DNA from: Actinomycetes bacterium
GTDB taxonomy: Bacteria > Actinomycetota > Thermoleophilia > RBG-16-64-13
Direction: 5' to 3'
NCBI GenBank assembly: GCA_024637035.1
Contig: JAGXFW010000023.1
Location: 217,139-281,138, forward strand
Length of the DNA stretch: 64,000 nucleotides
Shown here: positions 1-53,149 of the stretch, piece after piece
Layout of the letters: the number at the start of each line of letters is the position of its first letter
Numbering within the stretch: the stretch's first letter is position 1
Notes under the pieces: generated by a model
The model's database searches: none
Seen by the model: only the letters and a program-made list of their open reading frames with translations
What the model was told of the DNA's origin: nothing
Position numbers and translations under genes: made by a program

Positions 1-68
1 TGCGCTGTGATGGCGTCGAAGACACTGGGCGCTCTGTCGCTGTCGAACTGAAGCAAGACCTTCCTCAT
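1..68 (-). CDS. 5' end (22 codons) of a methylene-tetrahydromethanopterin dehydrogenase-like gene (MtdA/MtdB family); continues beyond window start
   Basis: Reverse complement of 1..68 reads MRKVLLQFDSDRAPSVFDAITA, closely matching the recalled N-terminus of MtdB (M-KLL-QFD-D--PSVFD). AAGGAGGTG Shine-Dalgarno 8 nt upstream of the ATG at 66-68. Confidence 0.45.
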   Translation of the reverse strand, partial: MRKVLLQFDSDRAPSVFDAITA

Positions 69-191
69 CGCATGCCACCTCCTTGGGCTCCTCGAGCCCT
101 CTCGATCCGGCGATCGACACCACGGCTTCGTAAGTAGCCGCCTGTATACTCCCTTCCCAACCGTAATCAGCGGCCGGGGAGGGGACCGAGC

Positions 192-812
192 ATGCACCGA
201 CTGCGAGCACTCGCGATGCAGCAGGGGTGGATCTACGAGACCATCGTTTCGACGTATTGTGGTGGAGAGCCCCACGCCGCCCCGATCGGAGTCCGCGCGG
301 AAGGCCTCGACACGCTGCGCATGGAGATCTTCGATTCCTCCCAGACTCTCACGGGGATACTCGACACGGGACTGTTCACGGTCGGCTTCCCCTCCGATGT
401 CACCATGTTCCACGCGGCCCTGTTCACCCCGGGACTCCTCGTCTTCGAGGAAGCGCGAAGCGTCTCGGCGCCCGTCGTTGTCGGCTGCGTTGCCACCGTG
501 GAACTCGCCCTTCGCGAGGCGATCCCGGCACCTCCCCGCGTCAGAATATCCGGGGAGGTCGTGCGTGCCGAAGTCCAGGTGGAGTCGCCTGCGAACCTCA
601 GGTTGTTCAATCGGGCTGAGGGCTTGCTGGTGGAAAGCCTCATCCTGGCCACTCGCCTGCAATACCTAGACGAAGAAACGGTTCGAAGATCGCTCGAAGA
701 GAACCGCCGCGTGATCCGCAAGGTCGCCCCAGGGTCGATCTGGGAGACGAAGATGGCTGACCTCATGGGCCACATCGGCGGCGCGGTCATCGCTCCTCCG
801 CCTCAACCTTGA
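192..812 (+). CDS. DUF447-family protein (H4MPT-cluster 'orf19'-type, FMN-binding split-barrel-like)
   Basis: 206-aa ORF; sequence pattern recalled from DUF447 proteins found in methanopterin biosynthesis neighbourhoods; context next to RFAP synthase. Confidence 0.5.
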   Translation: MHRLRALAMQQGWIYETIVSTYCGGEPHAAPIGVRAEGLDTLRMEIFDSSQTLTGILDTGLFTVGFPSDVTMFHAALFTPGLLVFEEARSVSAPVVVGCVATVELALREAIPAPPRVRISGEVVRAEVQVESPANLRLFNRAEGLLVESLILATRLQYLDEETVRRSLEENRRVIRKVAPGSIWETKMADLMGHIGGAVIAPPPQP

Positions 813-1782
813 TCTGCGCCCCCCGGTTCCGCCCTGCGGCCACGAAGACGACCCCTCCTCCGGAACTCCTCGCCACGAACTCGCGTACCTCCTCCTCCAC
901 ACGCTTCGAGCGTTCCGCGTCGACAAGCCCATAAACGGCCGGTCCCCACGAACTCTGCCCCGCTCCGAAAGCCCCGGCGCGCAGCATCACGTCGATGGCC
1001 CCGGCCGCGTCTCCGTCGCCGTAGATCCCACCCTGCACGCTCTCGAAGTAGAGCCCCGTCTTGCGGTCGATGGCCGTGAGGGCGCAGCCGAACTCGGCGA
1101 TGTCTTCCTCCACCAAGGCCGGCATGAGCTTGAGTTGGGTGAGCCTGCATATCTCTTCCGAGGCCCGGACAGGTGGTGAGAGCGCCCCGAAAGCCCTCTC
1201 TTCCCTCGAGCCGTTGAGGCCCAGACTCGAGCCTGGGATCGCCACGACGAAACGCCAGGCGGAGGGGAAGTCCCGCCGGAAGACCACGGTCGGCATCGCG
1301 CAGTCGTCCTCTCGATCCTTCTTGCGGCCAGCATCGATTATGAACCCACCGGTCTGGAAGGCTGCTACTCCGATCCCCGACCGTCTGCCCCTACCCACGG
1401 CGCGCGCCACCTCATCAGCGTCCAGGTGCAGGCCGAGCACCTTCGCTAGTCCTGTCCCCAACGCCAGCCCGAGTTGCGTCCCCGAGCCGAGCCCAACGTG
1501 CTCCGAGATCCTTTCGCGGACCTCGACAGAGACCCGAGGCTCTACGGAGAAGCGGTGGCAGAAACGACGCACGATACCCTCGATCTCACCGCGCTCGTCT
1601 CCTACAACCTGCAGGGAGTCATGCGTCTGGAGCACGAGCGAAGTGCAGGGCGCATCCAGCGCGACCCCTATGCTTCCATAGCAGCGCCCGACGTCTTCAC
1701 TCAGGTTCGTGAAGCCGACGTGCAACCTGCAGCCGGTCGCCACGGAGACCTTCACGGCTGCTCTGGGGGTCGTCGTGAGCAT
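787..1782 (-). CDS. mptG: beta-ribofuranosylaminobenzene 5'-phosphate (RFAP) synthase, GHMP-kinase fold (methanopterin biosynthesis)
   Basis: ORF 787..2178 trimmed to the ATG at 1780-1782 (MLTTTPRAAVKVSVATGCRLHVGF... typical RFAP-synthase N-terminus; ~332 aa). GHMP-like GLGSGTQLGLALG motif. The upstream 130 codons are an antisense extension over the flavoprotein gene. Confidence 0.7.
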   Translation of the reverse strand: MLTTTPRAAVKVSVATGCRLHVGFTNLSEDVGRCYGSIGVALDAPCTSLVLQTHDSLQVVGDERGEIEGIVRRFCHRFSVEPRVSVEVRERISEHVGLGSGTQLGLALGTGLAKVLGLHLDADEVARAVGRGRRSGIGVAAFQTGGFIIDAGRKKDREDDCAMPTVVFRRDFPSAWRFVVAIPGSSLGLNGSREERAFGALSPPVRASEEICRLTQLKLMPALVEEDIAEFGCALTAIDRKTGLYFESVQGGIYGDGDAAGAIDVMLRAGAFGAGQSSWGPAVYGLVDAERSKRVEEEVREFVARSSGGGVVFVAAGRNRGAQIKVEAEER

Positions 1783-2318
1783 CGCGCCAGCGCCCCTTCT
1801 ATCTCGTCTGGACCTGAGAGAACGATCACACCATCCATCGCAGCGAGCTTCGCGCAGTTCTCGATATCCACAGGCCGAATCGCCAACTCGAGCTTCTCCC
1901 CGCCGGGCAGGGTGGTGACCGTGGTCCCCGGGTGCTGATCGACAGGCAACAGGAAGACGGGCACATCCGTCTTGTTCGTTTGTGCCACCGAGTTCGTGAT
2001 GATGGTGTCGGCCACGCCATGCGCGATCTTCGCCGCCGAGTTCGCCGTCAGCGGGGCCACCAGAAGACAATCGAAACGGCCGGTCTGGAGCCTGCCTACT
2101 ATGAACGGCGTGTTGGCATCCTCTTCGATCAGCACGTCCTTGGCCATCGCCTCCAACTGCTCCCAGAGCTTGTACCAACGCACCACCTTGACCGCCGCCT
2201 GGGACAGCACCGCGGTGACCTGGACATCGCCTTTCTCCAGTACGGCCGACAAGGCGGCGAAAGTCTCCGGCATCAGGTCACCGGAACCTGTGATCCCCCA
2301 CACCAGTTTTAGAGTCAT
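1752..2318 (-). CDS. AfpA/DmrB-type flavoprotein (probable dihydromethanopterin reductase)
   Basis: 188 aa, PF02441-like N-terminus LKLVWGITGSGDLMPETF (W-ITG-G-L, archaeal AfpA/bacterial DmrB pattern rather than UbiX GxSGASG). Immediately upstream of and overlapping mptG. Confidence 0.5.
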   Translation of the reverse strand: MTLKLVWGITGSGDLMPETFAALSAVLEKGDVQVTAVLSQAAVKVVRWYKLWEQLEAMAKDVLIEEDANTPFIVGRLQTGRFDCLLVAPLTANSAAKIAHGVADTIITNSVAQTNKTDVPVFLLPVDQHPGTTVTTLPGGEKLELAIRPVDIENCAKLAAMDGVIVLSGPDEIEGALARCSRRPPEQP

Positions 2319-2323
2319 ACGGC

Positions 2324-2974
2324 CTACCTCCCTACAGGACGGTCACCCACGACAAGGCGCGTCACTTCGATCAGGCGGTCGACCGACCGGCGCACCGAAG
2401 CCATACCCTCTTCGTCGGCCTCCGCGCCCTCCGCTCCCAAGTCTCTCGACCACACGGCGCCACCGAGGTTCGCTCCGAACGACCCGCCGCCCACGGGGAT
2501 CATCTCGCTGATCACATAGAAGTCCATCATGGAGTGCAGCGTCGGTTCCTGACCGCCCGTTCGGTCTCCACCCACCGCGATGCCCATGCCGACTTTGTTC
2601 CTGAACACCTTCGGATCCTGCGCCACCAGTGCCCGACAGCGATCGAGAACCGCCTTGAGCTGCCCGCTGATCTGCCCCTGATAACAGGGGCTCCCGAGGA
2701 TCCAGGCATCGGCTCGTTGCATCAGTGGATAGAGATCGGCCATATCGTCCTTGTGGACACACCCTTGTCGTTTCCTAACGCAATAGTCGCAGTGGATGCA
2801 GAACTCGATGGTCTTCTTGCGAACGCTGTAGTAGTCCACCTCTACTCCGTGCTGCTCGTGCGCGTATCTCAGCGCCGCGTTGACGGCGTGGTGTGTCGAC
2901 TGCCTGCGCGGACTCCCCGAGATGCCCAGAAGCCGTATACCCGTTCCGCTCGTGGGGCTCACCATGTCACGCAT
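2324..2974 (-). CDS. iron-sulfur flavoprotein / NADPH-dependent FMN reductase family protein
   Basis: Start chosen at MRDMVSP (AGGTGG upstream). LLGISGSPRRQS flavodoxin-like NADPH-FMN reductase N-terminus plus compact Cys cluster CIHCDYC...C (Isf-type). Confidence 0.6.
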   Translation of the reverse strand: MRDMVSPTSGTGIRLLGISGSPRRQSTHHAVNAALRYAHEQHGVEVDYYSVRKKTIEFCIHCDYCVRKRQGCVHKDDMADLYPLMQRADAWILGSPCYQGQISGQLKAVLDRCRALVAQDPKVFRNKVGMGIAVGGDRTGGQEPTLHSMMDFYVISEMIPVGGGSFGANLGGAVWSRDLGAEGAEADEEGMASVRRSVDRLIEVTRLVVGDRPVGR

Positions 2975-3044
2975 GCCACCTCTCGCTTGCGCCGGCCGGC
3001 TTGGCCGGCCGGCGCATGAGGTACCGGTCCAGAGTCGCCGAGTA

Positions 3045-3767
3045 CTATGACTCGTCTCCTCCGCTCTTGAGGCCGGCAACGTAGTCGTACACGAAGGCCG
3101 CCAACAGACCTCCTACGATCGGTCCGATGATGTAGATGGGGAACTTCTCCCAGCCACTCGTCGTGCCCCAGAACGTCTCGGTGAGCAGCGGACCGAAGGT
3201 ACGCGCGGGGTTCATCGAAGCACCGGCGATCGGGCCGGTCACGATGATGTCCGCAGTCACGACCAGTCCGATGGCCAGCCCTGCGAACCCGGCGGAGGCC
3301 CTCTTGTCGACCGCCGCTCCCCAGATCACCAGAACGAGGAAGAAGGTCGTCACGGCCTCTATCAGGATAGCCTGCCAGTAGTTGACGCCGTCACCGGGCA
3401 TCGTGTGACCAAGTCCGGCGTCAACGGCGCGCGTGCCGACTATCGCAACGATCACCAGCGAAGCCGCGACCGCACCGATCAGCTGAGCGACGATGTACGC
3501 CATGAGGTCCTTGGACGGAAAGCGGCCGGTGGCCCACAACGCGATGCTCACGGCTGGGTTGATGTGAGTTCCCGAGATATGCCCGAAAGCGTAGATCATT
3601 ATCATGACGGCGAAGCCGAATGAAAGGCCGATCAACAGCAGGCCCGCGGATTCGACGCCGCCGAAGAACACAACCGAAGTCACTACGGAACCCGTGCCCA
3701 AGAATACGAGCACGAAGGTACCGATCAGCTCCGCGATGGCGCGCTTCATCAGTGTTGGCTGCGGCAC
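3045..3767 (-). CDS. MIP-family channel (aquaporin/aquaglyceroporin)
   Basis: Two NPA boxes (HINPAVS and NPARTFGP), six hydrophobic helices, 240 aa. Confidence 0.85.
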   Translation of the reverse strand: MPQPTLMKRAIAELIGTFVLVFLGTGSVVTSVVFFGGVESAGLLLIGLSFGFAVMIMIYAFGHISGTHINPAVSIALWATGRFPSKDLMAYIVAQLIGAVAASLVIVAIVGTRAVDAGLGHTMPGDGVNYWQAILIEAVTTFFLVLVIWGAAVDKRASAGFAGLAIGLVVTADIIVTGPIAGASMNPARTFGPLLTETFWGTTSGWEKFPIYIIGPIVGGLLAAFVYDYVAGLKSGGDES

Positions 3768-3886
3768 AGTGTCACCTCCAGGGTTCTAGTCAGTGGCAGT
3801 GGGCGAGTGGAGAACGGGACGGCATCGCCCCGATCTCCACTCGTGTTCACCCGAACCTTAGGTCAGTCTAGGTAGACTTCCCCGGC

Positions 3887-5416
3887 TCAGACGGCGAGGT
3901 GCCACTGGCAGTACCCTTTGGCGCCTGTACCCAGGCCGGTCGCCATCGGGACGTTCCGCTTGATCAGCGAGCATGTGGCGCAATCCTTGCAGCCACGAAC
4001 CGGTGCTCCCGGAGTACCCGGATCGGCAGCCACGATGTTGGTCATCAGCGTGGCTGTGGTGCATTCGGGCGTCAGGAAGCACGGGAAGTCGGACAACGTC
4101 ATCAGGGCCGCGAAGCGCTGCGTGATGGCGCAGGCCGGATACGTGTAGCGCTGCGGGTTGCTGATGACCTCGTTGTTGTCGACGGTGCTGAGGTCGACCT
4201 CCACGCCCTTGATCTTGCCGCCGGAGCCTAGCGGGGTGATATCGAGGATGCTCTCGCCGCGCTTGAGGATATCCATGAAGTCGACGTTGTGTAGCTCGTC
4301 GGCCTCGCCCCGGTCGGGATGCATGGCGCAGTAGTTGTGGAACCGCTTGTTCAGCAGATCGATCACCATGGGCACGGTGAAGCTATCTTTCCACAGGATA
4401 TAGGCAGATGCGCAGGCCGTCGACCCCGTGGCCACCGAAAGAACGTCATACACGCTCTTGAACGCATCCTGCTTGAGAGCACGGTTCAAGGTGTTCTCCA
4501 ACACACCCGTCACCGACTCGTAGATGGCGAAAACCATATCGTCGGCGAACATATTGTACGCGGACTGAGCGATGTGGTGGGCGACGTCCCCCACGCAGTA
4601 CGCCGGCACGGCGGTGATGTTGGCCGGGTGCACGCCCGCCTTCATGGCAGCGACGATAGTCGGCCGCATCCTGTCTTTGTACTGCGCCATGTACTTACGG
4701 GTGTCGAACGACGTGTGCGGTCCGTGCCCACCCAGGTTGTGGGTGTCCATCAACTGAGCCTGGGCAGCGGAGGGTTCGCGGTAGATGAACTGCAGCATGT
4801 CGATCTCGGCCTGCTCGGCCTCGGCCAGCGTCTTGCCGGACTCGATGGCACCGCGGAGGGCACCTGCAAGGCCGTAGGACGTGTTCATGCCCCACGACTT
4901 ACACGCCAGAATCGTCTTCTTGTGGTCTGCCGGGATGTCCAAGCCGATGAGGATCTGGTTGACCAGGTTCGGCACAGAGCCTACGGACATGGCGAAGTCC
5001 ACCACGCAGGTCGGGCCGTACATGCCCCCGTAGCGTCGCACCGCTTCCCGCCCAACCAAAGCCTTGTTGGCTCCGATGGCGTCGATGAACTTCCACATCG
5101 AATCCTTGAAGGCCGAATCTTCCTCGTACAGAATCTCGAGGATGGGCGGAGTCTGGTAGTGCTCCACGAAGGGATCATCTTCGGGACGCACCGTCTCGCA
5201 CAGGCTCGTCATGATGTCGAAGTGGGCATTCACCGAGTCAACGTGGAGGGCGATGACCTCCTTGGACTGCCCCTCGGCCGCCGTCATCTTGTTCACGGCG
5301 TCCACGTAGGGCTTGGCGTCCGTAACCTTGAACGTCCCACCCCTGTTGGCCTTGTTCACACCGAACACGGCCTTCGTAGCTCCGACTGCTTCGGTGATCA
5401 TCTTCTCGTACAGCGA
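3887..5416 (-). CDS. conserved hypothetical protein, 509 aa, Cys-motif C-terminus (function unknown)
   Basis: Long ORF 3887..5620 trimmed to MSLYEKMITEAV at 5416, which has a GGGAGG Shine-Dalgarno 5 nt upstream. C-terminal motif GCKDCATCS...CQWH. No family confidently recognised. Confidence 0.5.
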   Translation of the reverse strand, partial: SLYEKMITEAVGATKAVFGVNKANRGGTFKVTDAKPYVDAVNKMTAAEGQSKEVIALHVDSVNAHFDIMTSLCETVRPEDDPFVEHYQTPPILEILYEEDSAFKDSMWKFIDAIGANKALVGREAVRRYGGMYGPTCVVDFAMSVGSVPNLVNQILIGLDIPADHKKTILACKSWGMNTSYGLAGALRGAIESGKTLAEAEQAEIDMLQFIYREPSAAQAQLMDTHNLGGHGPHTSFDTRKYMAQYKDRMRPTIVAAMKAGVHPANITAVPAYCVGDVAHHIAQSAYNMFADDMVFAIYESVTGVLENTLNRALKQDAFKSVYDVLSVATGSTACASAYILWKDSFTVPMVIDLLNKRFHNYCAMHPDRGEADELHNVDFMDILKRGESILDITPLGSGGKIKGVEVDLSTVDNNEVISNPQRYTYPACAITQRFAALMTLSDFPCFLTPECTTATLMTNIVAADPGTPGAPVRGCKDCATCSLIKRNVPMATGLGTGAKGYCQWHLAV

Positions 5417-5590
5417 CATTGTTCCCTCCCAGTCCTGTTCGACCCACATCTGTCTCTGGGAGAAGCGCGACGGCAGATCCATCTGCTCCCTCTCCCCCTC
5501 GAGTGGCCGGGTCGTGCTCTCGGATCCCCGCGCCCGTTCCCCGGGTTCAGGGATGAGAACGAAAAAACCGACCCACAAAGAGTCTCCTCT

Positions 5591-5656
5591 TGGCAGCTCG
5601 GCCGTGTTCAAGCGGAACACCTACAGCCTGGCAGTCCCTTCCGCAGGGTAGCCTGT
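5591..5656 (-). promoter_or_regulatory. copy A of a conserved ~68-nt element, ~175 nt upstream of the 509-aa gene
   Basis: Shares tggcagctcggc ... gcggaa ... tcccttccgcagggtagcc with copy B at 6223..6290 (~80% identity; perfectly conserved 19-mer and 12-mer). Confidence 0.45.
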
Positions 5657-5820
5657 ACTTATCCTACGATGCCACTCGTCTAGCGAAACTCTTTGAAACC
5701 GTTCGAGACTCAACAACAGTCTCTCTCGCACACCAACTCAGTCACATCTCTCGGCCGACACCACCTCCTCGGCCGCTCGGCCGCTAGCGCTTCCGCTAGC
5801 CGCATCGAGCCTTCGCAAGC

Positions 5821-6024
5821 CTACGTCAGCACCTCGGCGCATTCAGCGCACAGGATCCTCGGAAGCTTCTTCTTGGCCTTCGTGCTGGGGAATGGATAGC
5901 CGCCTTCCCACAACTCGACGTCTTCCCTGATCGCATGGTCCTTACAGAGACCCATCCCACAGACGATACAAACGCCTACGGCTACCGTCTCCACGCCCGA
6001 CTGAGCGCACACGTAACACTGCAT
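5821..6024 (-). CDS. DUF2180-like small zinc-ribbon protein (4 CxxC pairs)
   Basis: 67 aa, MQCYVCAQ...CIVCGMGLC...CAECA; GGGAGGAAGGAGG Shine-Dalgarno upstream. Confidence 0.55.
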   Translation of the reverse strand: MQCYVCAQSGVETVAVGVCIVCGMGLCKDHAIREDVELWEGGYPFPSTKAKKKLPRILCAECAEVLT

Positions 6025-6200
6025 ACCTACCTCCTTCCTCCCTGCGTTCGAAGTGCATTACACACGATTCCTACACCGCCGCTACTCCGGCTGCGCCTCC
6101 TGACGCGGGCATCAGGCACTCTTCAGGCGGCAGGCACGGTCGCGATCTCCTCACCTCCTCCCTTCTTCACTTCGCCACGGTTTGAACCCGGGAAAGCAAA

Positions 6201-6236
6201 CAGCCGAGCTGCCAGAAATACCTGGCAGCTCGGCTG
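6201..6236 (-). other. perfect 15-bp stem hairpin (CAGCCGAGCTGCCAG-AAATAC-CTGGCAGCTCGGCTG) overlapping the 5' part of repeat copy B
   Basis: Exact inverted repeat read directly from the sequence. Its right arm is the conserved 12-mer of the repeated element. Confidence 0.5.
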
Positions 6237-6290
6237 TGCGTTGGCGGAAAAACCAAACAGCCTTGCCGTCCCTTCCGCAGGGTAGCCCGT
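6223..6290 (-). promoter_or_regulatory. copy B of the conserved ~68-nt element, ~195 nt upstream of the DUF2180 gene
   Basis: See copy A. Same orientation and nearly the same spacing to the downstream start codon. Confidence 0.45.
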
Positions 6291-6365
6291 GACGGTCGTT
6301 CGCCAACCATATGCGAAGGGTGGCGCGGTTGTCAAGCGGTCGGGAGAGCCCGACTCCGCACCTCC

Positions 6366-6692
6366 CTACAGGATCACGCCCTCGTGCGACAGCCGCGTTC
6401 GCGTGCTCTCACGAAGGGAGGCTTCGGATATCACCTCCACCTTTCGCCCCAGCAACGCCTCGAGCTCAAGCACCAGCGCGATGTGATCCTGGGCCGTCGC
6501 CACCGGCAAGAACCAGACGACCAAGTCAACGTCGCTGTCCGGACCGGCTTCGCCTCGCGCGACGGAACCGATCAGCCGTACGTTCGCTGCGTGATGGTCG
6601 GCAGCGATCCGCACGATATCCGCCCGCCTTCCAAGGACCTCTTCGGTGATACCCACGTGCCCGGCGCTGCCCTTAGCCCACGGCTTCCTCAA
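6366..6692 (-). CDS. nucleotidyltransferase-domain protein (MNT/antitoxin-like), no HEPN partner adjacent
   Basis: IGSVARGEAGPDSDVDLVVWF = GS-x9-DxD minimal nucleotidyltransferase motif. Start uncertain (TTG at 6692 or GTG at 6657). Confidence 0.55.
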   Translation of the reverse strand: MRKPWAKGSAGHVGITEEVLGRRADIVRIAADHHAANVRLIGSVARGEAGPDSDVDLVVWFLPVATAQDHIALVLELEALLGRKVEVISEASLRESTRTRLSHEGVIL

Positions 6693-7785
6693 CGGTCGAG
6701 CAGGCCATGTCGAAGGCCTCGGCCACGCCCTTATAGGTGAGCTTCCCGCCCCATGTGTTCACCCCCAGCGCGAGTCCGGGGTCGCTGAGGACTGCGGCCT
6801 CCACGCCTTGTTCGGCAAGACGAAGGATGTACGGCAGCGTAACGCTGGTGAGCGCCGCGGTGGACGTCTGCGGCACGGCGCCCGGCATGTTGGCCACGCA
6901 GTAGTGCAGGATGCCTTCCTCGTAGTACGTGGGGTTCTCGTGCGTGGTCGGCCTCGTGGTCTCGACGCAGCCGCCCTGGTCGACGGACACATCGACGATC
7001 ACCGCGCGTGGGCGCATGTCGGACAGCATGTCGCGGGTGATGAGGTGCGGCGCGCGGGCTCCGTGAAGGAGTACGGCGCCGATAACGAGGTCCGACTGTG
7101 GCAGGTAGTGCTCGAGGTTGCCTCGGTCGGAGTAGACGGCGTTGCAGTTCGCGGGGAGGACGTCATCGAGATAGGCGAGACGGGCGGGCGACAGTTCGAG
7201 CAGGGTGACACGCGCTCCCATGCCAGCGGCAACCTTCGCCGCGTTGAGGCCGACGATGCCGCCTCCAAGGATGAGCACGTCGACGGGAGCGACCCCAGGG
7301 ACGCCGCTGATGAGGCGACCCAAGCCCCCGTTCGGGTAGAGCAAGGAGGAGGCCCCCACCAGGGGAGCCATGCGCCCGGCCACCTCGCTCATCGGGGTGA
7401 GGAGCGGGAGCGCTCCACCCACTTCCACGGTCTCGTAGGCGATGCCGATGACCCCGCTCTCGACCATGGCTTCTGTGAGCGCGCAGTCGGCGGCCAGGTG
7501 CAGGTACGTGAAGAGCACTTTGCCCGGCTGCAGGTGCCGATACTCCATCGGAAGGGGCTCCTTGACCTTCACCACCATGTCGGCGCGGTTCCAGACCTCG
7601 ACCGCCGTAGCGCACACCTCGGCGCCCCGAGCGACGTAGGCTTCGTCGGCGAACCCGCTGCCGACGCCGGCGCCGGCCTCCACGAGCACCTGATGCCCGT
7701 GCTGTTCCAGCGTCCACACACCCGAGGGGGTCATTCCCACCCGGTACTCGTTGTTCTTGATCTCCTTCACCACACCGATGAGCAT
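6673..7785 (-). CDS. ald: alanine dehydrogenase
   Basis: 370 aa, MLIGVVKEIKNNEYRVGMTPSGV... textbook Ald N-terminus, Rossmann GGGIVGLNAAKVAAGMGA. Confidence 0.85.
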   Translation of the reverse strand: MLIGVVKEIKNNEYRVGMTPSGVWTLEQHGHQVLVEAGAGVGSGFADEAYVARGAEVCATAVEVWNRADMVVKVKEPLPMEYRHLQPGKVLFTYLHLAADCALTEAMVESGVIGIAYETVEVGGALPLLTPMSEVAGRMAPLVGASSLLYPNGGLGRLISGVPGVAPVDVLILGGGIVGLNAAKVAAGMGARVTLLELSPARLAYLDDVLPANCNAVYSDRGNLEHYLPQSDLVIGAVLLHGARAPHLITRDMLSDMRPRAVIVDVSVDQGGCVETTRPTTHENPTYYEEGILHYCVANMPGAVPQTSTAALTSVTLPYILRLAEQGVEAAVLSDPGLALGVNTWGGKLTYKGVAEAFDMACSTVEEAVG

Positions 7786-7840
7786 CGCCGGCCTCCAGCC
7801 TACCTAGTCGCCTCGCCCACAACCTACACCCCGAACACCC

Positions 7841-8617
7841 CTAGCCCGATTTCTCGACCGGGACCCAACCCACCGCGGCGCCCGGTCCTCGCCGCCGCCG
7901 GAAATGAGCACGGTAATGGTACCTGTCGGACCGGAAGAACACATACTCCAGATTCACGGGGCGACCACCCTTCGAGAACGCCGTGAGTGTCATCTTGAGC
8001 AGTGGCGCCAGCGGGTCGATGCCCAGGAGTCGAGCCGTCTCGTCGTCGGCCGCCACGGCCTGGAACACTTCCGTCGCCGAGGTGACCTCCACCCCCGCCT
8101 TGGTCTCGAGGAGACGCATGAGGGGCTCACGCTCCAGGTCGCCGAGGCGCAGCTTCCCCCCCACATCCGCGGGCACGTAGCTCTCCACGACGGCGAACGG
8201 CTCACCCTCCACCGAACGGAGGCGCTTCGCGAACACCACACGCTCGCCGGTGGATATGCCGAGCGAAGCGGTCACCTCCGCCGGCGCCGGGGAAAGGCCG
8301 AACTCCAGCACGCGCACCTCCACGCGCAGACCTTGCCTGATCAGATCCTCGAGATAGCCGGAATGCGAGGACGACGACTCCGCTTCGACGTCGAGAGACA
8401 CGTACGTGCCTTTGCCTCGCACCCGGAAGATCAGACCGTCGTCTTCCAGGATACCGAGCGCCTGCCGCACCACCACCCGGCTGACGCCGAACCGCTCCAT
8501 GAGAGCGGCTTCGGTGGGAAGCCGCTCCCCAGGCGCGGCCTCGCCCGAGACGATCGACTCCCGCAGCGCCCGCATGACCCGATAGTAGAGCGGCACTCCG
8601 CCGCCGCGACCACCCAC
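7841..8617 (-). CDS. GntR-family transcriptional regulator, HutC/UTRA subfamily
   Basis: N-terminal wHTH LPTEAALMERFGVSRVVVRQALGILEDDGLI, C-terminal UTRA-like domain. Confidence 0.75.
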   Translation of the reverse strand: MGGRGGGVPLYYRVMRALRESIVSGEAAPGERLPTEAALMERFGVSRVVVRQALGILEDDGLIFRVRGKGTYVSLDVEAESSSSHSGYLEDLIRQGLRVEVRVLEFGLSPAPAEVTASLGISTGERVVFAKRLRSVEGEPFAVVESYVPADVGGKLRLGDLEREPLMRLLETKAGVEVTSATEVFQAVAADDETARLLGIDPLAPLLKMTLTAFSKGGRPVNLEYVFFRSDRYHYRAHFRRRRGPGAAVGWVPVEKSG

Positions 8618-8696
8618 TACCTCACCCCCCTCAAGTTCGCGGCCCGCGTCGTCCCCGCCCCATTCAAGTCCGCGCCCGTTCTCACCCTCGCCCCGT

Positions 8697-9644
8697 TCAC
8701 GTTCTCGCCCCCCTGACGAATGGGCGTCCGAGGGCTCCGGGGAGCGCCTTTCCGCGCCCGAACAGGAACAGGGCCACCAGCACCGCGACGAACGGCAGGG
8801 CGTTCAACAGATCGATGGGCACCGACACGCCCACCAGCTGCAACGCCGTCGCCAGCGAGAGCGCGATGCCGAACCCCAGCGCCAGGATCACGACCCAGAG
8901 AGGGCGGCCGCGGGAGAGCATCGCGATGACGATCGCGATGAACCCCGTTCCATTGGTCATGAAGGGCACGAACACACCCGCTGCCACGATCGAGAGAAAG
9001 CCCCCGCCCAAGCCCGCGCACGTGCCCGCCACGAGCACCCCGAACACACGCGTCGCGACGACGCTGACGCCGGCCGCATCCAGCGCCTCCGGCTCCTCAC
9101 CCGCGGCCTTGAGTTCGAGTCCCAGCGACGTGGCCCGAAGGAGCCACCCGACGGCCGCCGCGAGGGCGATGGCCAGGTAGACGACGAGCGGCTGCGAGAA
9201 CAGCGCGGCACCGATAACCGGCACCTTCGCGATCAGGGGGATCTCAAGACCAGGCACCGCGTCCAGCCGGGGGTACGACGCCCCGTATTCCGCCCGATGG
9301 AGCACGCTCGTGGCACCCTGTGCCAGGACCAGCAGGGCGATGCCCACCACCACTTGATCGAGGTTCAAGCCGACGCACAACAGTGCCATGACCGCGCCGA
9401 AGGCGAGTCCCGCCGCCGCTGCGGCCGCGAATCCCGCCCAGGGCGAGCCCCAATGGAGGGTCGCGGCGAAGCCGGTGAAGGCTCCCGTCAGCATCATCCC
9501 CTCCAGACCGATGTTGAGTACGCCCGCGCGCTCCGAGACCATCTCCCCCAGAGCGGCCAGCAGCAGCGGGATCCCCGCGATGACGGCGCCCGCCACGAGG
9601 GCCGTGAGCACCGGGACACTGAGAGACGCGCCGCCCCCGTTCAC
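8697..9644 (-). CDS. ABC transporter permease (BMP/nucleoside-type uptake system)
   Basis: ~9 hydrophobic segments; 4-nt overlap chain with the neighbouring permease, ATPase and SBP genes. Confidence 0.7.
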   Translation of the reverse strand: MNGGGASLSVPVLTALVAGAVIAGIPLLLAALGEMVSERAGVLNIGLEGMMLTGAFTGFAATLHWGSPWAGFAAAAAAGLAFGAVMALLCVGLNLDQVVVGIALLVLAQGATSVLHRAEYGASYPRLDAVPGLEIPLIAKVPVIGAALFSQPLVVYLAIALAAAVGWLLRATSLGLELKAAGEEPEALDAAGVSVVATRVFGVLVAGTCAGLGGGFLSIVAAGVFVPFMTNGTGFIAIVIAMLSRGRPLWVVILALGFGIALSLATALQLVGVSVPIDLLNALPFVAVLVALFLFGRGKALPGALGRPFVRGART

Positions 9645-10708
9645 GAACGGACTCCCCCACGGAACGAGACGCCGGCGATCGTGAGCGTCACCAGCACCAC
9701 GCCCACCAGCATGAGGACCACGTCATCGGGTAGCCCCGCCCGTCGAGCCGCGTAGTGCCCGCCCATGGAGAGCACGGCGTAGAACGCCACCAGGGGTACG
9801 AGCGCGGCGACCCGCAGGCGTGAGAGGAACACCAGCGCGAACAGCGGCAGGCCGAAGGCCGGGTTCCAGTCGGCCCGCACGTAACCCCACACCCCGAGCA
9901 CCTCGACGCCGGCCCCCAGGCCGATGAGCGCTCCGCTCAGCATGAAGGCGGCCACGACCAATCGCCCCGTGGCCAGCCCGGCGTGCGCGGCGGCCCGAGG
10001 GCTCTCTCCAAGCACGCGCAACCGCAGGCCGAAGGAGGTCTCACGCAACACCACACCCACGAGCGCCGCGCACAGGACCGCGAGCACGAAGCCCGCGTGC
10101 ACGCGTGAACCGAACAACCGGGGCAGCATCCAGTCGAGGCCCACCACGTCGGTCTGCGGCACGAGCGTCTTCGCGCTTCTGAATGGTCCCTTTACCAGGA
10201 GGTTGGCGAAGTTGATACCGACGAAGGCCATCATGAGCGAGGTGACCACTTCGTTCAGCGCGTAGCGCGCCTTCAGCAACGCGGGCACCAGAGCCCAGAC
10301 AGCACCGGCGGCCGCTGCGAGCACCAGCAGAACCACCAGGTAGAGTGCCCTCGGCATGGTCCCAGCCAGCGACGGGGCGACGCCGGCGACCAGGGCGGCG
10401 GCCACCAGGAACTGCCCGTCTCCACCGATGTTCCACAGGCCGGCGCGGAAGGCCACCACCAGGCCGGAGGCGATGAGCAGGAGCGGCGCCATGCGCACCA
10501 CGACGTCCTGCAACCCGCTCCACGTGAAGAGCCCGCGGTCGAACACCTGGACGTAGAAAGCCAACGGATCGGCCCCAAGGACGAGTAGGAGCAGGCCCCC
10601 GACGCCGAGCGCCAGCGCGACCCCCGCGACCGCCCGCGCGACCCCTCGGCGCGCGCCATCCACCGCCGGAGGCTGGACGGCCGCCTTAGTGGCCGTCGCG
10701 GCGCTCAC
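9641..10708 (-). CDS. ABC transporter permease
   Basis: Polytopic membrane protein, operon position between the ATPase and the second permease. Confidence 0.7.
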   Translation of the reverse strand: MSAATATKAAVQPPAVDGARRGVARAVAGVALALGVGGLLLLVLGADPLAFYVQVFDRGLFTWSGLQDVVVRMAPLLLIASGLVVAFRAGLWNIGGDGQFLVAAALVAGVAPSLAGTMPRALYLVVLLVLAAAAGAVWALVPALLKARYALNEVVTSLMMAFVGINFANLLVKGPFRSAKTLVPQTDVVGLDWMLPRLFGSRVHAGFVLAVLCAALVGVVLRETSFGLRLRVLGESPRAAAHAGLATGRLVVAAFMLSGALIGLGAGVEVLGVWGYVRADWNPAFGLPLFALVFLSRLRVAALVPLVAFYAVLSMGGHYAARRAGLPDDVVLMLVGVVLVTLTIAGVSFRGGVRS

Positions 10709-12453
10709 GCCGCGCCTACCATCATGCTGGAGACCGCTTCCCGCGCCCCGTCCCCGCCACTCACCTCACCGGCCACCGTGCCTCCCACTAGCACCAGCAC
10801 GCGGCTTCCCAATTCGATCACCTCATCGAGGTCGGTGGAGATGACCACCGCGGCAACCCCGTCACGCGCCGCCATGCGCGCGATGAGCCCCCTGACGAAG
10901 AGCGCGGTCTGATGATCGAGGCCTGCCGTCGGGTTCTCGAAGACCATCACCCGAGGGGAGCCGAGGAGCTCTCGAGCCAGAAGGAGCTTCTGGATGGTGC
11001 CGCCGGAGAGCGTCCCGGCCGCCACCCACGGGGAAGGGAGGCTCACGTCGAACGCACCCAGCGCCCCCGCGCACGTCCGTTCGATCTCACGGCGCCGTAC
11101 GAAGCCGTTGCGCCAGTCAGGCGGGCTGCCGATGCGCTTGAGGAGCAGGTTGTAGGCGACGCCCAGGGTCGCGACTATCCCTTCGCCGAGCCTGTCGCCG
11201 GACAGATGACTCACCCCGGAGACCTGACGAGCGGACACACCCTCACTCACCACGGAACGTCCAGCCACACGGACATCGCCCCGTGAGGGGCGGATCTGCC
11301 CTCCGATCACTCCAGCCAACTCGCGTTGACCCGCCCCTTCGACTCCGGCGACCCCGAGGATCTCACCGGACTTCACGAGAAACGACACCCCGTGCAGCCC
11401 CGTCTCGCCCACACCGGACGCAACCCAGACATCGCGCAGTTCGAGCGCCGCGATCGGCGCGCCGCGCGCCGGCTCGTCGGCGGACCCGCCGGGATCGGCC
11501 TGCCCACTCTGATCGGCGGACCCGCTCGGTTCAGCCTGCCCGCCCGAATCGGTCGCGGCATCGGGGAGTGACGTCACGGGGCGCGGTTCGCCGAACATGG
11601 CGCGCAGCAGGCGGGCGCGAGCAGCTTCCCGGGCGTCGCTCGACGCGCGGCCCAGATCATCAGCCTCGACGGTCGCCACCAACCGACCACGTCTCATCAC
11701 CGAAACGCGATCGGCCCAGTCGAGCGCCTCTTCCAGACGATGCGTAACGAAGAGAACCGCGCGCCCCTCATCGCACAACGATCGCAGCACACGACCGAGT
11801 TCCTCGGCCTCCGACGGAGCGAGCGACGAGGTGGGCTCGTCGAGGAGCACGATGCGGCTGTCCCACCAGAGGGCGCGAGCGATCTCCACCTGCTGCCGCC
11901 GTGCTATCGAGAGACTCTCGACCCGGGCGCCCGGGTCGAGCTCGACACCGAGTCTGGCGGCGGCGGCCCGCAGGGCCGCCGCCGCCCTCCGACGCTCCGA
12001 CCTCACCCCGCGCCGCTGCCCGAGCATCATGTTCTCCACGACCGTGAGACTGCGCACGAGAGCCGGGTGCTGGCGCACAGTGGCCACTCCAAGATCTCGC
12101 GCCCGACGCGGCGACAGGATCGCTACGTCGCGGCCATCCACCATTACGCGACCGGCGTCCGGGCGGTAGATCCCAGCCGCGATGTTCAGCAACGAGGTCT
12201 TCCCCGCGCCGTTCTCGCCCAGAAGGCAGTGGATCTCGCCGTAGCGAAGCCCAAGCGAGACATCGTCAACGGCCGCCACCCCGGGGAATACCTTGCCGAC
12301 TCGGCAGAACTCGAGGGCGGCCGAAGGGTCGCCAGTCTGAGCGCCGGCCTGGGCGCCGCCCGGGTAGCCCGCCGCGGCGCCTGCCCGGGCGCCTGCCGTG
12401 CCGGAGCCTCGGGAGAGCAGGGGATCACGCGTGGTCGCCACGGCCCCCGTCAA
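10705..12453 (-). CDS. ABC transporter ATP-binding protein, duplicated ATPase domains
   Basis: Walker A GENGAGKTSLL and a second ABC domain. A degenerate SGSADQSGQADPGG repeat lies in the interdomain linker. Confidence 0.8.
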   Translation of the reverse strand: MTGAVATTRDPLLSRGSGTAGARAGAAAGYPGGAQAGAQTGDPSAALEFCRVGKVFPGVAAVDDVSLGLRYGEIHCLLGENGAGKTSLLNIAAGIYRPDAGRVMVDGRDVAILSPRRARDLGVATVRQHPALVRSLTVVENMMLGQRRGVRSERRRAAAALRAAAARLGVELDPGARVESLSIARRQQVEIARALWWDSRIVLLDEPTSSLAPSEAEELGRVLRSLCDEGRAVLFVTHRLEEALDWADRVSVMRRGRLVATVEADDLGRASSDAREAARARLLRAMFGEPRPVTSLPDAATDSGGQAEPSGSADQSGQADPGGSADEPARGAPIAALELRDVWVASGVGETGLHGVSFLVKSGEILGVAGVEGAGQRELAGVIGGQIRPSRGDVRVAGRSVVSEGVSARQVSGVSHLSGDRLGEGIVATLGVAYNLLLKRIGSPPDWRNGFVRRREIERTCAGALGAFDVSLPSPWVAAGTLSGGTIQKLLLARELLGSPRVMVFENPTAGLDHQTALFVRGLIARMAARDGVAAVVISTDLDEVIELGSRVLVLVGGTVAGEVSGGDGAREAVSSMMVGAA

Positions 12454-13550
12454 CCTCCGATCAGGGCTTCCACTTCGGTCTTGCTCTCAGTCACCGGCAC
12501 CTCGACCGTGCCGTCGATGATGTCGGCCTTCACGTCTTCGATCTCCTTCCAGAGGTCTTCCGGCACGTGGGGCGTCTGAAGGAGTTTGAGCCCATCGCCC
12601 GCCAGGTCGAGGTAGTACACCTGGGTGCCGAAGGTGCCCTCTTCCAAGGCTTTGGCCGCACGCTCGAACAAAGGTTGATAGTCCCACCACACCGAGGTGA
12701 GATAGACACCTTTCTTATCGAGCGACGTCTTGTCGCCGATCACGTCGATGAACCAGAGCTTGTCGGCACCGGCCGGGGGCGTCGCGGTCTCGACCGCCTG
12801 GATCATGCCGAAGCTCGACCCATCGCCCATGCCGAAGACGATGTCTGCGCCGGCAGCGATCACGCCTTCGGTCACCCGCTTGCCACCCGCGGCATCGGCG
12901 TATCCGGCTTGGCCGACTTGGGCCAGAAGCAGCTTGGTCGCAGGCTCTGCCGCCCGAGCGCCCGCCACGAACCCGCCGGCCATCTTGACCCAGTTCTCGT
13001 CGTCAGCCGACATCACGATGCCCAGAGTGCCGGTCTTGGTCATGCGGGCCGCCAGGAAACCGGCGAGGTAGGCACCCTCTTGGGCCCGCGTCTCCAGGTC
13101 CTGGCTCAGCCCCGGCGCCAACCCCTCTTCGAAAGCCCCGATCACGATCACGGGCACGTCGAGCTCACCCGCGGTCTGCCGGGCCACCACGTTGTAGCCG
13201 CTGGCCCAGGCGATCAGCAGGTCGGACCCATCGTCGGCCAACTGCCTCAGCACCGGGCCTGGGTCGTCATAGCCTGCGCCGTCGGCCACCTCGATCTCTA
13301 CGCCGAGGGAATCGGCGAGTCTGCGCGCCGCGTCAGCCCCTTCCTGGTTCCACCCGAAATCATTCGCCTCCTCGGGAGCCACGATGCCGATCCTGCTTAT
13401 GCTCCGCCCGGCAACACTGCTCGTCGTGGTGTCGGGGAGGGAGTCGCCCCCACATCCCGACGCTCCCGCCAACGCCAACGCCAAGGCCAGCAGCGCGACC
13501 GCGGCCGCCAGCGGAGCAACCGCCATCCCTCTCGCACGCACTCGCACCAT
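12450..13550 (-). CDS. BMP-family (PnrA/Med-like) ABC substrate-binding lipoprotein
   Basis: Signal peptide plus lipobox ALALAGASGCGGDS. The ORF's N-terminal extension to 13859 was rejected; a start near 13550/13565 with a GGGAGAGA Shine-Dalgarno fits the end of the upstream gene at 13559. Confidence 0.7.
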   Translation of the reverse strand: MVRVRARGMAVAPLAAAVALLALALALAGASGCGGDSLPDTTTSSVAGRSISRIGIVAPEEANDFGWNQEGADAARRLADSLGVEIEVADGAGYDDPGPVLRQLADDGSDLLIAWASGYNVVARQTAGELDVPVIVIGAFEEGLAPGLSQDLETRAQEGAYLAGFLAARMTKTGTLGIVMSADDENWVKMAGGFVAGARAAEPATKLLLAQVGQAGYADAAGGKRVTEGVIAAGADIVFGMGDGSSFGMIQAVETATPPAGADKLWFIDVIGDKTSLDKKGVYLTSVWWDYQPLFERAAKALEEGTFGTQVYYLDLAGDGLKLLQTPHVPEDLWKEIEDVKADIIDGTVEVPVTESKTEVEALIGG

Positions 13551-13558
13551 TCTCTCCC

Positions 13559-14725
13559 TCACCATCCCATCGCCTCCAGCGCCGACGCCACGCCGCTTCC
13601 CGGCGCGACGTTCCATCCCATCGTCCTCAGACTGTGTTCCATGGCCGCCAGCGCGGCCAACGCGTAGGTGGGGCTGCAGCAGACGCCCATATGCCCGATC
13701 CGCACGAGTCGTCCGTCCAGCACCGAACCCGTGATGCTCCCCGATATGAGCACTCCGAAGCGCTCGACCATCCTCCGGCGCAGCTCCACGTCGTCGATGC
13801 CGTCTGGCACCCTTACGGCGGTGGTGACCTCGCACGCGCATGCGTCGCTCTCGGGCCACAGCTCGAGGCCCATGCCACGGACGCCCGCGCGGGTCATCCC
13901 GGCCACCTCCGCGTAGCGCCGATACCTTTCGTCAAGCCCGACCTCCAGATACTCAGCCACCGCGGCGTGAAGAGCGGTCATCTCGGTCACCGCCGGCGTG
14001 TAGGGCCACGCACCCTTCTCCAGCCACTTCTCCTTCCAATCGAGCACGCTGAAGTAGGAGTGACGATTGGGCGAATCGACGCCCAGGAAGTGTTGCCACG
14101 CGTCGGCCGACACCGACATGGCACTCAACCCCGGGGGCGCGCCAAGCACCTTCTGCGAACCCGCCACCAGGATGTCTATGCCCCACTCATCGGTGCGGAT
14201 ATCCCGACTTCCTACCGACGACGCGGCATCCACGAACACGAGGCACTCATGCGCCTTGGCAACCCGGGCGAGCGCCTCGAGGTCGCAGACCGTGCCGCTC
14301 GGTGTCTCGCAGTGCACGATCCACACGATCTTGGCCTCGGGATGGGCGGAGAGAGCCTCCTCCAGCTGCTCGGGCTGCACTACTGAGTCCCACGGGGCCG
14401 TCACAGGCACGGCAGTGCCGCCATACTTCTCGATGAAATAGCGGTTGCCCTCGCCGTAGTGGCCGTTCTCGCAGTTGACCACCACGTCGCCCTGGTCGAG
14501 TCCGCACACCGAGACGGCTTCAAGGGCCAGCAAAGCCTCGCCCTGCATGATGACGATGTCGCCGGCTGTCTTGAAGACCTGCTTGAGCATCTCTTCCGTG
14601 CCATGGAAAAGGTCTCGGAACGAATCCCCAAGAAACGGGACGATCTGGGCGCCGAGCGCGGCACGCACCCTGTCGGAAAGCTGCACGGGCCCCGCCGTCA
14701 TGATGAACTCCGGCCCCCGCGTCAT
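13559..14725 (-). CDS. class-V PLP aminotransferase (serine--glyoxylate / alanine--glyoxylate aminotransferase type)
   Basis: SGSQKVLGAPPGLS (SQK-x-L PLP-lysine region of AGXT family); start at MTRGPEF with GAGGAGGA Shine-Dalgarno. Confidence 0.75.
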   Translation of the reverse strand: MTRGPEFIMTAGPVQLSDRVRAALGAQIVPFLGDSFRDLFHGTEEMLKQVFKTAGDIVIMQGEALLALEAVSVCGLDQGDVVVNCENGHYGEGNRYFIEKYGGTAVPVTAPWDSVVQPEQLEEALSAHPEAKIVWIVHCETPSGTVCDLEALARVAKAHECLVFVDAASSVGSRDIRTDEWGIDILVAGSQKVLGAPPGLSAMSVSADAWQHFLGVDSPNRHSYFSVLDWKEKWLEKGAWPYTPAVTEMTALHAAVAEYLEVGLDERYRRYAEVAGMTRAGVRGMGLELWPESDACACEVTTAVRVPDGIDDVELRRRMVERFGVLISGSITGSVLDGRLVRIGHMGVCCSPTYALAALAAMEHSLRTMGWNVAPGSGVASALEAMGW

Positions 14726-19879: not shown

Positions 19880-19920
19880 CGGTCCACCGGCGGTCGCGGA
19901 CCGCTCGATCTTCCGGTAGC

Positions 19921-52389: not shown

Positions 52390-52443
52390 TTCGACCAAAC
52401 GGAGGGACTCGACGGGCACCATGACCTCTGAAAGGCACACTAT

Positions 52444-53145: not shown

Positions 53146-53149
53146 AGTT

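Follow-up and report, generated by a model that had tools for sequence, protein, structure and literature searches.

What is a tetrahydromethanopterin (H4MPT) gene module doing at the end of a 64-kb stretch of actinobacterial DNA, which one-carbon (C1) chemistry does it serve, and how is its expression controlled? An earlier sequence-only reading of this stretch (referred to below, at its full length, as the window) had described an H4MPT-type cofactor and C1 module in a high-GC bacterium of the Gram-positive type, and this was borne out, all the genes that it named being present. We conclude with high confidence that positions 1–6340 form one end of a ~27-kb chromosomal cluster for methanofuran (MFR)- and H4MPT-dependent C1 metabolism in an uncultured Actinomycetota bacterium, the synthesis of both cofactors included. 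A structured RNA is found twice at the head of the operon, and the explanation as a whole, that is, the cluster, the roles assigned to its genes and a leader predicted to act as an ON switch, appears probable to us.

The DNA covered comprised the window and ~20 kb to the left of it (locus L009), ~84 kb in all. The leftward extension was obtained by an exact look-up of the DUF447 protein encoded in the window, which led to two Logan contigs, and by a subsequent walk with the Ftr protein, which led to L009. The contigs were identical to the window (100% identity over 1180 nt for L001/L009 and over 6903 nt for L002). The earlier reading had staked its module on the existence of other H4MPT genes in the genome, and ftr, mch, fwdABCD and methanofuran biosynthesis genes directly adjoin the window. 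Starting from Mtd, the order of the encoded proteins in L009 is ATP-grasp, FwdD, FwdB, FwdA, MptA, DHPS-like, DUF1464, Ftr, FwdC and Mch, followed by a RimK-type ligase (MptN/MyfB-like), a CitG-like protein, a HisA/F-like protein of the Orf17 family, an MfnD-like ATP-grasp protein and, at the end, a TIGR03123/MfnF-like protein, an MfnE-like kinase and MfnB. Curated cut-offs were exceeded by FhcD/Ftr (TIGR03119, 408 bits), FwdA (TIGR03121, 703 bits), FwdB (TIGR03129, 545 bits), FwdC (TIGR03122, 262 bits), Mch (TIGR03120, 402 bits), MptA (TIGR00294, 290 bits) and the TIGR03123 protein (327 bits), while the FwdD-like protein reached 77 bits, under its exception cut-off, and no FwdE, FwdF or FwdG was seen in the DNA examined. 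The methylotroph counterparts of these cofactor and C1 genes have been described (PMC8141765, PMC3615186).

Judged by family membership, the encoded proteins would link CO2 reversibly to formyl-MFR and further to formyl-, methenyl- and methylene-H4MPT. RFAP synthase (RFAPS) would start methanopterin synthesis, and the AfpA/DmrB-type flavoprotein would convert dihydro- into tetrahydromethanopterin, the Isf-type iron-sulfur flavoprotein encoded beside it being the probable electron donor; MptA and the DHPS-like, MptN/MyfB-, MfnB-, MfnD-, MfnE- and MfnF-like proteins would make the cofactors. Mtd would interconvert methylene- and methenyl-H4MPT using NAD(P), and Mch, Ftr and a redox-competent FwdABCD complex would complete the route to or from CO2.

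The genes at the very edge of the window support these assignments to different degrees. Only the first 22 codons of the Mtd-family gene lie inside it (1–68, minus strand; N-terminus MRKVLLQFDSDRAPSVFDAITA), the remainder being to the left; the full-length protein, 286 aa with the Pfam domain Mpt_N, is encoded at L009:1113-1973, on a contig identical to the window, and is predicted to be an NAD(P)-dependent methylene-H4MPT dehydrogenase. The partial gene had been labelled MtdB-like; its membership in the Mtd family holds, and the MtdB label is unsupported, the closest characterised relative being MtdA of Methylorubrum extorquens (PDB 6TGE/1LU9; 282 bits, 48% identity) in a comparison set that contained MtdA as its reference and no MtdB or MtdC sequence. 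Divergently from mtd runs the gene for a DUF447 protein of 206 aa (192–812, plus strand), which was rightly recognised earlier (PF04289 at 8.7e-11, and PF20766). It resembles the uncharacterised MTH_863 (PDB 2PTF, 1.7e-12) and is probably a flavin-binding split-barrel protein. This gene is found at the equivalent position in L005, L006, L010 and L014 and is absent there in L007, L011 and L012; in the window its 3′ end overlaps the end of the RFAPS gene by 26 nt.

The RFAPS gene itself (787–1782, minus strand) encodes a predicted beta-RFAP synthase of the MptG type, the enzyme of the committed step of methanopterin biosynthesis, which would condense p-aminobenzoate (pABA) and phosphoribosyl pyrophosphate (PRPP) into beta-RFAP. 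The concern raised earlier, namely that this product might group with other GHMP kinases, can be set aside: TIGR00144 gave 181 bits (cut-off 113.5), whereas the next GHMP family, archaeal shikimate kinase, gave 29.8 bits, and many of its 4401 homologues are named beta-RFAP synthase. A point against the assignment is that the archaeal equivalog model NF040726 was matched with 210.6 bits, under its cut-off of 328; this shortfall is expected for a bacterial RFAPS, and the exact-function label is thus not automatic.

Next to it lies the gene for the AfpA/DmrB-type flavoprotein (1752–2318, minus strand), as the earlier reading had it (TIGR02699, 203.9 bits against a cut-off of 192.45). Its sole relative in the PDB is the ‘putative dihydromethanopterin reductase (AfpA)’ DmrB (3WIS/4MWG), a Burkholderia AfpA homologue that is likewise an AfpA-family flavoprotein encoded with methanopterin biosynthesis genes, and to which the window protein scores only 67 bits. 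The 3′ end of afpA overlaps the RFAPS start by 31 nt, and on the basis of this overlap and of the pairing conserved in seven loci the flavoprotein is a probable dihydromethanopterin reductase converting H2MPT to H4MPT.

An Isf-type protein is recognised by an FMN_red/flavodoxin-like domain together with a compact CX2CX2CX4-7C motif for a [4Fe-4S] cluster. Both were found in the 213-aa product of the gene at 2324–2965 (minus strand; PF03358 FMN_red, 115 bits; C56-x2-C59-x2-C62-x6-C69), so that the cluster is predicted from its sequence. The presence of an Fe-S flavoprotein had therefore been stated correctly, whereas its end at 3079, which corresponds to the longest possible open reading frame, had not: the gene most likely starts at 2965, in agreement with the 213-aa product called in the public record. 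GGAGG-like ribosome-binding sites lie upstream of several starts. The gene stops 5 nt ahead of afpA, and the isf, afpA and RFAPS genes are probably translationally coupled, as the 31-nt overlap and the 5-nt gap imply. isf directly adjoins afpA in seven loci examined; L013 and L015 are without both genes there. This conserved adjacency suggests that Isf donates electrons to AfpA, and we propose that the two form a two-protein analogue of the Fe-S-containing archaeal dihydromethanopterin reductases. Archaeal DmrX is a dihydromethanopterin reductase, a flavoprotein with Fe-S clusters. In the window the Fe-S component would instead sit next door, on a separate Isf-type protein and not on a fused ferredoxin domain. 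It counts against this partnership that adjacency is all that speaks for it. Two apparent gene fusions were rejected. The ‘Isf-AfpA fusion’ of L011 (444 aa; L011:4450-5784), considered as Rosetta-stone support, is a probable indel artefact, because similarity at the C-terminal end of Isf is lost precisely where the junction lies, and fwd and DHPS-like genes are broken up in the same long-read assemblies; the AfpA-RFAPS ‘fusion’ P0088, also from long-read metagenome assemblies with fragmented neighbour genes on the same contigs, is a probable indel artefact as well.

Which kind of formylmethanofuran enzyme the cluster encodes was clearly indicated by FwdB. This protein scored 425 bits against FwdB of Methanothermobacter wolfeii (5T5I_B) and 60.7 bits against FhcB of M. 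extorquens (6S6Y_B), it keeps the N-terminal CxxC...C Fe-S motif and the Cys-His of the tungstopterin site (VCHGP), and its gene is preceded by fwdD. An Fhc-type complex is ruled out by this difference in score, by the conserved Cys-His and Fe-S motif and by the FwdD gene, and the predicted complex is a redox-type formylmethanofuran dehydrogenase, unlike the Fhc hydrolase of methylotrophs, which contains no metal. A redox-type Fwd has likewise been noted for actinobacteria from Hakuba (PMC7325909). The formaldehyde oxidation of the methylotroph type that the sequence-only reading implied is not supported, in view of the redox-type Fwd, with its FwdD and catalytic Cys, and of the search for Fae: tblastn with a query taken to be M. 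extorquens Fae gave nothing better than E = 0.4 over the window and loci (~64 kb + 20 kb), and no member of the Fae family occurs among the called L009 genes.

Does the cluster then run reductively, with Fwd, Ftr, Mch and Mtd taking CO2 to methylene-H4MPT for assimilation or a hybrid acetyl-CoA pathway, in place of the oxidation of formaldehyde? The catalytic Cys-His and Fe-S motif retained in FwdB and the presence of FwdD, as in CO2-reducing archaea, would fit such a direction, and so would the failure to find Fae nearby and a setting that looks anaerobic or respiratory-flexible (futalosine menaquinone genes, Rex, giant multihaem cytochromes); moreover, related actinobacteria with fwdDBA-ftr-fwdC also carry the Wood-Ljungdahl pathway (PMC7325909). 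However, the 84 kb yielded no mer, mtr or CODH/ACS genes, and the NAD(P)-type Mtd is of a kind familiar from bacterial pathways that run oxidatively. Because all steps are reversible, the sequence does not tell in which direction carbon flows, nor what supplies or drains the methylene level, and we regard reductive operation as conceivable, with the chances somewhat against it. That no Fae, Mer or other methylene-level entry or exit enzyme was seen in the ~84 kb weighs against our account of a working pathway, in whichever direction it operates.

A comparison with known systems places the cluster more precisely. Methylotroph islands, such as those of Methylorubrum extorquens, contain mtdA/mtdB, mch, fhcABCD, fae, mptG, afpA or dmrA, orf5/myfB, orfY/myfA, orf17 and orf22/mfnB. 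Like them, our cluster encodes Mtd (48% identity to MtdA), Mch, Ftr/FhcD, the subunits A, B and C, MptG and AfpA (PMC8141765, PMC3615186), as well as a RimK-type ligase, ATP-grasp proteins, a homologue of the HisA/F-like Orf17 and MfnB, and it likewise combines the C1 enzymes with the cofactor genes. Unlike them, it has a redox-type B subunit and FwdD, no fae nearby, Isf beside AfpA, DUF2193/AqpM/DUF2180 in the operon, an RNA leader at its head, and an Actinomycetota host. With the fwdDBA-ftr-fwdC of the Hakuba serpentinite Actinobacteria (Merino et al. 2020, PMC7325909) it shares FwdD, the N-terminal [4Fe-4S] motif and the catalytic Cys in FwdB, and the embedded ftr; that study reported no methanopterin biosynthesis genes, whereas here RFAPS, AfpA, MptA, DHPS-like and MptN/Mfn homologues flank fwd, and mch and mtd are present. 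The view that such a module is a rarity in this kind of bacterium does not hold, since H4MPT/MFR genes had already been noted in ‘Actinomycetes’, Firmicutes, Chloroflexi and Synergistetes, with fwdD and afp retained outside Proteobacteria (Chistoserdova, PMC5020050), and the actinobacterial fwdDBA-ftr-fwdC operon is known (PMC7325909). The H4MPT module itself is a further example of an already reported system, well resolved in that the Fwd-type cluster is complete and syntenic with all the cofactor biosynthesis genes in Actinomycetota, and it bears on the debate on whether ‘archaeal’ C1 reactions are ancient in Bacteria.

To whom does the cluster belong? As judged from protein similarity, the host is an Actinomycetota bacterium. 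The nearest species-representative genomes with RFAPS (76% identity) are labelled ‘Actinomycetota bacterium’ and ‘uncultured actinobacterium’, the named RFAPS and Ftr homologues come from a ‘Thermoleophilia bacterium’ or ‘Actinobacteria bacterium’, and the Rex, UbiD-like and UbiE proteins of the window share 90%-identity clusters with proteins of JAHJSA01, an ‘Actinomycetota bacterium’ metagenome-assembled genome (MAG); public labels thus range from ‘Actinomycetota bacterium’ to ‘Thermoleophilia bacterium’. This clustering of housekeeping proteins at 90%, together with the Actinomycetota/Thermoleophilia affiliation of the nearest relatives, overturns the earlier guess of a Methylomirabilota- or Rokubacteria-like lineage. 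The futalosine-pathway, ResB/ResC and Rex genes on which that guess leaned are indeed nearby, and such a context is ordinary for Actinomycetota.

One might still suspect that the H4MPT genes are an artefact of assembly or binning, or a recent foreign island, and not a part of the actinobacterial chromosome, given that the first 6 kb have a GC content of 0.61–0.64 vs. 0.66–0.70 in most of the window, that the gene content is ‘archaeal-like’, and that Ftr is ~75% identical to proteins of Desulfobacterota MAGs. We consider this highly improbable, and contamination very unlikely. Two Logan runs and a 306-kb contig yielded the same cluster sequence in independent assemblies, the Ftr and RFAPS proteins both being recorded on one contig of 306,156 bp; the 132-kb contig JAHJSA010000052 carries Rex, menaquinone, aquaporin and RFAPS genes together, with consecutive accession numbers; and the synteny is kept at similar GC in relatives with 61–76% RFAPS identity. 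The slightly lower GC of the H4MPT end and the ~75% identity of Ftr to Desulfobacterota proteins are compatible with an old lateral exchange between anaerobic lineages.

How the cluster may be controlled is suggested by an RNA element of ~95 nt, found by a terminator scan combined with a repeat search, which occurs twice in the window and contains an aptamer-like part of ~70 nt. Copy A (6190–6290, minus strand) lies 5′ of the DUF2180 gene, with its aptamer-like part at 6221–6290, and scores 75.4 bits with our covariance model R1; a hairpin of 16–17 bp at 6200–6237 is followed by a U-rich tract, and the 5′ arm of this hairpin is the 3′ half of the aptamer. Copy B (5560–5656, minus strand) lies 5′ of the DUF2193 gene and scores 80 bits; its aptamer-like three-stem element (5589–5656) is followed by a terminator-like hairpin and a U-run. 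About 15 nt upstream of copy A there is a match to a sigma-70-like promoter (6306–6335, minus strand; TTGACA, an 18-nt spacer, TATGGT), which is suggestive by its position only, as the scan gave one match, to the consensus only, vs. 1.0 expected by chance. The 23-nt core pattern of the RNA, by comparison, gave two matches in the window vs. 0.01 expected.

The conservation of this RNA is striking when the window is compared with L003: the aptamer cores are 97% (copy A) and 100% (copy B) identical, whereas the coding genes show 72–93% and the flanking intergenic DNA 68–87% identity. L007, L011 (two copies), L012 and L014 likewise have the core upstream of DUF2193 or DUF2180. When metagenome contigs were scanned for the core pattern, 108 matches were returned, ~75 of them with the full motif, the others being chance matches in GC-rich coding DNA; altogether the motif-bearing loci include L003, L005, L007, L010–L014 and ~60 metagenome loci (L016–L122), with GC contents from 0.37 to 0.74. 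Covariance model R1 also recovered divergent copies on which it had not been trained, in L010 and in the Chloroflexi locus L013.

The structure derived from 63 distinct copies consists of P1 (GGC/GCC), a P2 hairpin (CCC/GGG) with a CGG loop, and then a two-part P3; the CGG loop of P2 may base-pair with a CCG that is invariant, and a pseudoknot is proposed on this basis. Across these copies 93.3% of the cells were paired vs. 24–48% in slid controls, a result to be read with the circumstance, unfavourable to the proposed fold, that the scan pattern had fixed 18 bases, so that P1 on its 5′ side, P2 and the pseudoknot could not covary and the unbiased support comes from P3 and the 3′ strands. The main helix (25–35 with 57–67) contains seven pairs with changes on both sides, the covariation score was reached by none of 500 shuffles, and the frequent G-U pairs indicate that the sense strand is the structured one. 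We conclude that the RNA is very probably a genuine structured cis-regulatory element.

Of 70 distinct copies, 55 have a terminator that overlaps the aptamer: the aptamer's 3′ half also contributes to a downstream hairpin with a U-run behind it. As the 3′ half takes part in both structures, the RNA can fold as aptamer or as terminator but not as both, as expected of an ON switch. Most likely, the element would thus act as a transcriptional ON switch, where the folded (ligand-bound) RNA would prevent termination. Two features detract from this mechanism: some high-GC copies have no clear U-run, and in several loci a −10-like ATAAGT is located 1–3 nt before P1, such that the transcription start could fall inside the element.

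The genes behind the RNA are of one kind. All the copies with at least ~1.1 kb of downstream DNA precede H4MPT/MFR genes (operons of DUF2180/DUF2193, RFAPS, FwdD or Mtd). Mostly the order is (DUF2180)-DUF2193-AqpM-Isf-AfpA-RFAPS; in some loci RFAPS follows directly, and in others FwdD-FwdB-FwdA-Ftr-FwdC. In variant loci a 594-aa protein and a protein with a LarC2-like nickel-insertion domain come first (L041:2094-3878 and 3976-4497; likewise L018, L034, L052 and L103), and then Mtd, ATP-grasp and FwdDB. The 594-aa protein gave no Pfam, NCBIfam or PDB match and has no similarity to DUF2193.

The pbuE adenine riboswitch is a transcriptional ON switch whose terminator competes directly with the aptamer, and the ZTP riboswitch turns on folate-linked C1 genes. 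The RNA described here resembles them in its compact multi-stem aptamer-like fold with invariant junction nucleotides, in a terminator whose 5′ arm is made of the aptamer 3′ strands, in the association with the genes of one C1-cofactor pathway and in its tandem copies; it differs from them in matching no Rfam 15 family and in being associated with H4MPT/MFR and not folate genes. No relevant match to the Rfam 15 covariance models was obtained at E ≤ 1 in positions 1–8000 of the window or in 12 motif-bearing loci, a result that excluded the Moco, THF, ZTP, PRPP/ykkC and nadA families as the identity of the RNA, and in the full-text literature we found no paper linking a riboswitch to H4MPT/MFR genes.

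The RNA thus has what is expected of a riboswitch, namely a structure supported by covariation and a consistent position 5′ to related genes in distant lineages, along with an expression platform. Whether it binds a small molecule, for which it is a candidate by its sequence and predicted structure, we consider an evenly balanced question. The signal candidates are formaldehyde (methanediol), a formaldehyde adduct, or an intermediate of the methanopterin or methanofuran pathway, each particular ligand, such as formaldehyde, being improbable when taken singly. A non-metabolite-binding RNA, i.e., a leader recognised by a protein or another attenuator or processing element, is a serious possibility that we rate below riboswitch function: leaders bound by proteins can also be conserved, structured and terminator-adjacent, the riboswitch reading comes without a named ligand, and DUF2180, or DUF2193, for which a regulatory role has been proposed (PMC12375889), is encoded right behind the RNA and could regulate its own synthesis. 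Such autoregulation is disfavoured because the motif also heads RFAPS-first and FwdD-first operons that are without DUF2180 and DUF2193. Moreover, the long invariant unpaired stretches, the multi-stem junction and the likely pseudoknot are typical of riboswitches, as are the spread over GC contents of 0.37–0.74, the tandem copies and the terminator formed from the aptamer's own 3′ half.

The genes that follow the two RNA copies in the window belong to an operon of the order DUF2180/DUF2193-AqpM-Isf-AfpA-RFAPS. A small Cys-rich DUF2180 protein (67 aa, 7 Cys) is encoded at 5821–6024 (minus strand; PF09947, 119 bits), a DUF2193 protein of 510 aa at 3887–5419 (minus strand; PF09959, 746 bits) and an aquaporin of the MIP family at 3045–3767 (minus strand; PF00230 MIP, 182 bits). 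That an aquaporin follows the module had been seen correctly before; in comparisons with the PDB it proved to be of the archaeal AqpM type (206 bits vs. 124 for AqpZ). It is no bystander: it partners DUF2193 and is conserved as part of the operon.

No other protein of the cluster comes close to DUF2193 in conservation. Its best 120 homologues, those of Chloroflexota MAGs included, all show at least 74% identity over 510 residues, and the full-length family forms only ~15 clusters at 50% identity. Between the window and L003 the DUF2193 protein is 98% identical (at the fragment level) and its DNA 93%, vs. 76% for the RFAPS protein. Cys477, Cys480 and Cys504 are invariant. A structure model of the protein (pLDDT 74) gave no structural match in the PDB.

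Among methanogens, the homologue from Methanococcus voltae carries one [4Fe-4S] cluster and is encoded beside a MIP gene, with no function assigned (PMC12375889). With this archaeal pair (Mvol_0354; Dieter et al. 2025, PMC12375889) the window shares the Pfam family (746 bits), the C-terminal Cys477/480 and the adjacent AqpM-type MIP; the third conserved Cys is at 504 in the window protein vs. 493 in the archaeal one. In contrast to the archaeal pair, the window protein belongs to a bacterial clade with at least 74% identity across phyla, located inside H4MPT/MFR operons and preceded by the RNA motif. The order DUF2193-MIP-Isf-AfpA-RFAPS-Mtd-...-Fwd-...-Ftr is kept, down to 46% identity, in six loci that were found through RFAPS, with DUF2180 usually nearby; the loci with a conserved order include L005, L007, L010, L011, L012 and L014.

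It could be argued that DUF2193, AqpM and DUF2180 constitute an independent archaeal-type module, e.g., for the uptake or handling of iron-sulfur or sulfide, which is a mere neighbour of the H4MPT genes. In methanogens 91% of the DUF2193 genes adjoin a MIP or porin gene, and the DUF2193 protein is more abundant in cells grown on pyrite; a role in Fe-S trafficking or regulation has been proposed for it (PMC12375889). We find this unlikely for the bacteria studied here. DUF2193 abuts H4MPT/MFR genes in all nine bacterial loci, three of which were found by a search with DUF2193; two of the nine, L013 and L015, keep H4MPT/MFR genes on the flanks of DUF2193 without any MIP; and the RNA leader is common to DUF2193 operons and to those that begin with RFAPS, Fwd or Mtd. 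DUF2193, AqpM and DUF2180 are a conserved part of the bacterial H4MPT/MFR operon.

Taken together, these observations lead us to a joint proposal, which we offer tentatively as one that falls a little short of even chances. The RNA would represent a new riboswitch class for MFR/H4MPT C1 metabolism, turning the pathway ON upon a pathway-level signal, and DUF2193, the AqpM-type channel and DUF2180 would be working parts of Fwd-type MFR/H4MPT metabolism that have so far gone unrecognised and are common to methanogens and these bacteria. What distinguishes the system is a chemistry of the Fwd type with no Fae nearby, DUF2193, AqpM and DUF2180 as obligatory companions, and an uncatalogued riboswitch-like leader shared by many lineages. 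Should the RNA prove to bind a metabolite, this branch of C1 metabolism would, as far as our literature search found, have its first reported riboswitch, whose ligand would reveal what the host organisms use the pathway for. In any case, the motif provides a handy genomic marker for H4MPT/MFR operons across uncultured lineages, and for DUF2193 the gene order, the shared regulation and the extreme sequence constraint point to a functional context in Fwd-type MFR/H4MPT metabolism, a concrete setting in which its role may be tested.

As for the rest of the window, a class-V aminotransferase is encoded at 13559-14785 (minus strand). Its best match is the pyridoxamine-pyruvate transaminase model (338 bits, below the cut-off of 600), and its neighbours at 7841-13859 encode a GntR/UTRA regulator and a Bmp-type ABC transporter. 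The earlier reading had treated this gene as unlinked to the H4MPT module, and we also saw no link between the two.

Further to the right, the window encodes three giant multihaem c-type cytochromes of 1169–1696 aa with 15, 12 and 30 CXXCH motifs, the two largest of which contain Ig-like Big_5 domains, accompanied by a NapC/NirT-like protein with 12 haems (multihaem genes at 19921-25011 and 45629-50692, minus strand, and at 54866-58375 and 59838-60842, plus strand). Each of the two largest cytochromes is found beside its own ResB/ResC-like pair and a TPR protein (17889-20068 with 25008-25913, and 42781-45583). The multihaem genes suggest extracellular or long-range electron transfer in a cell of the Gram-positive type. 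Between the cytochrome genes there are also genes for two PRC-barrel proteins and an NHL-repeat protein (51874-54337, plus strand; 58625-59641, minus strand).

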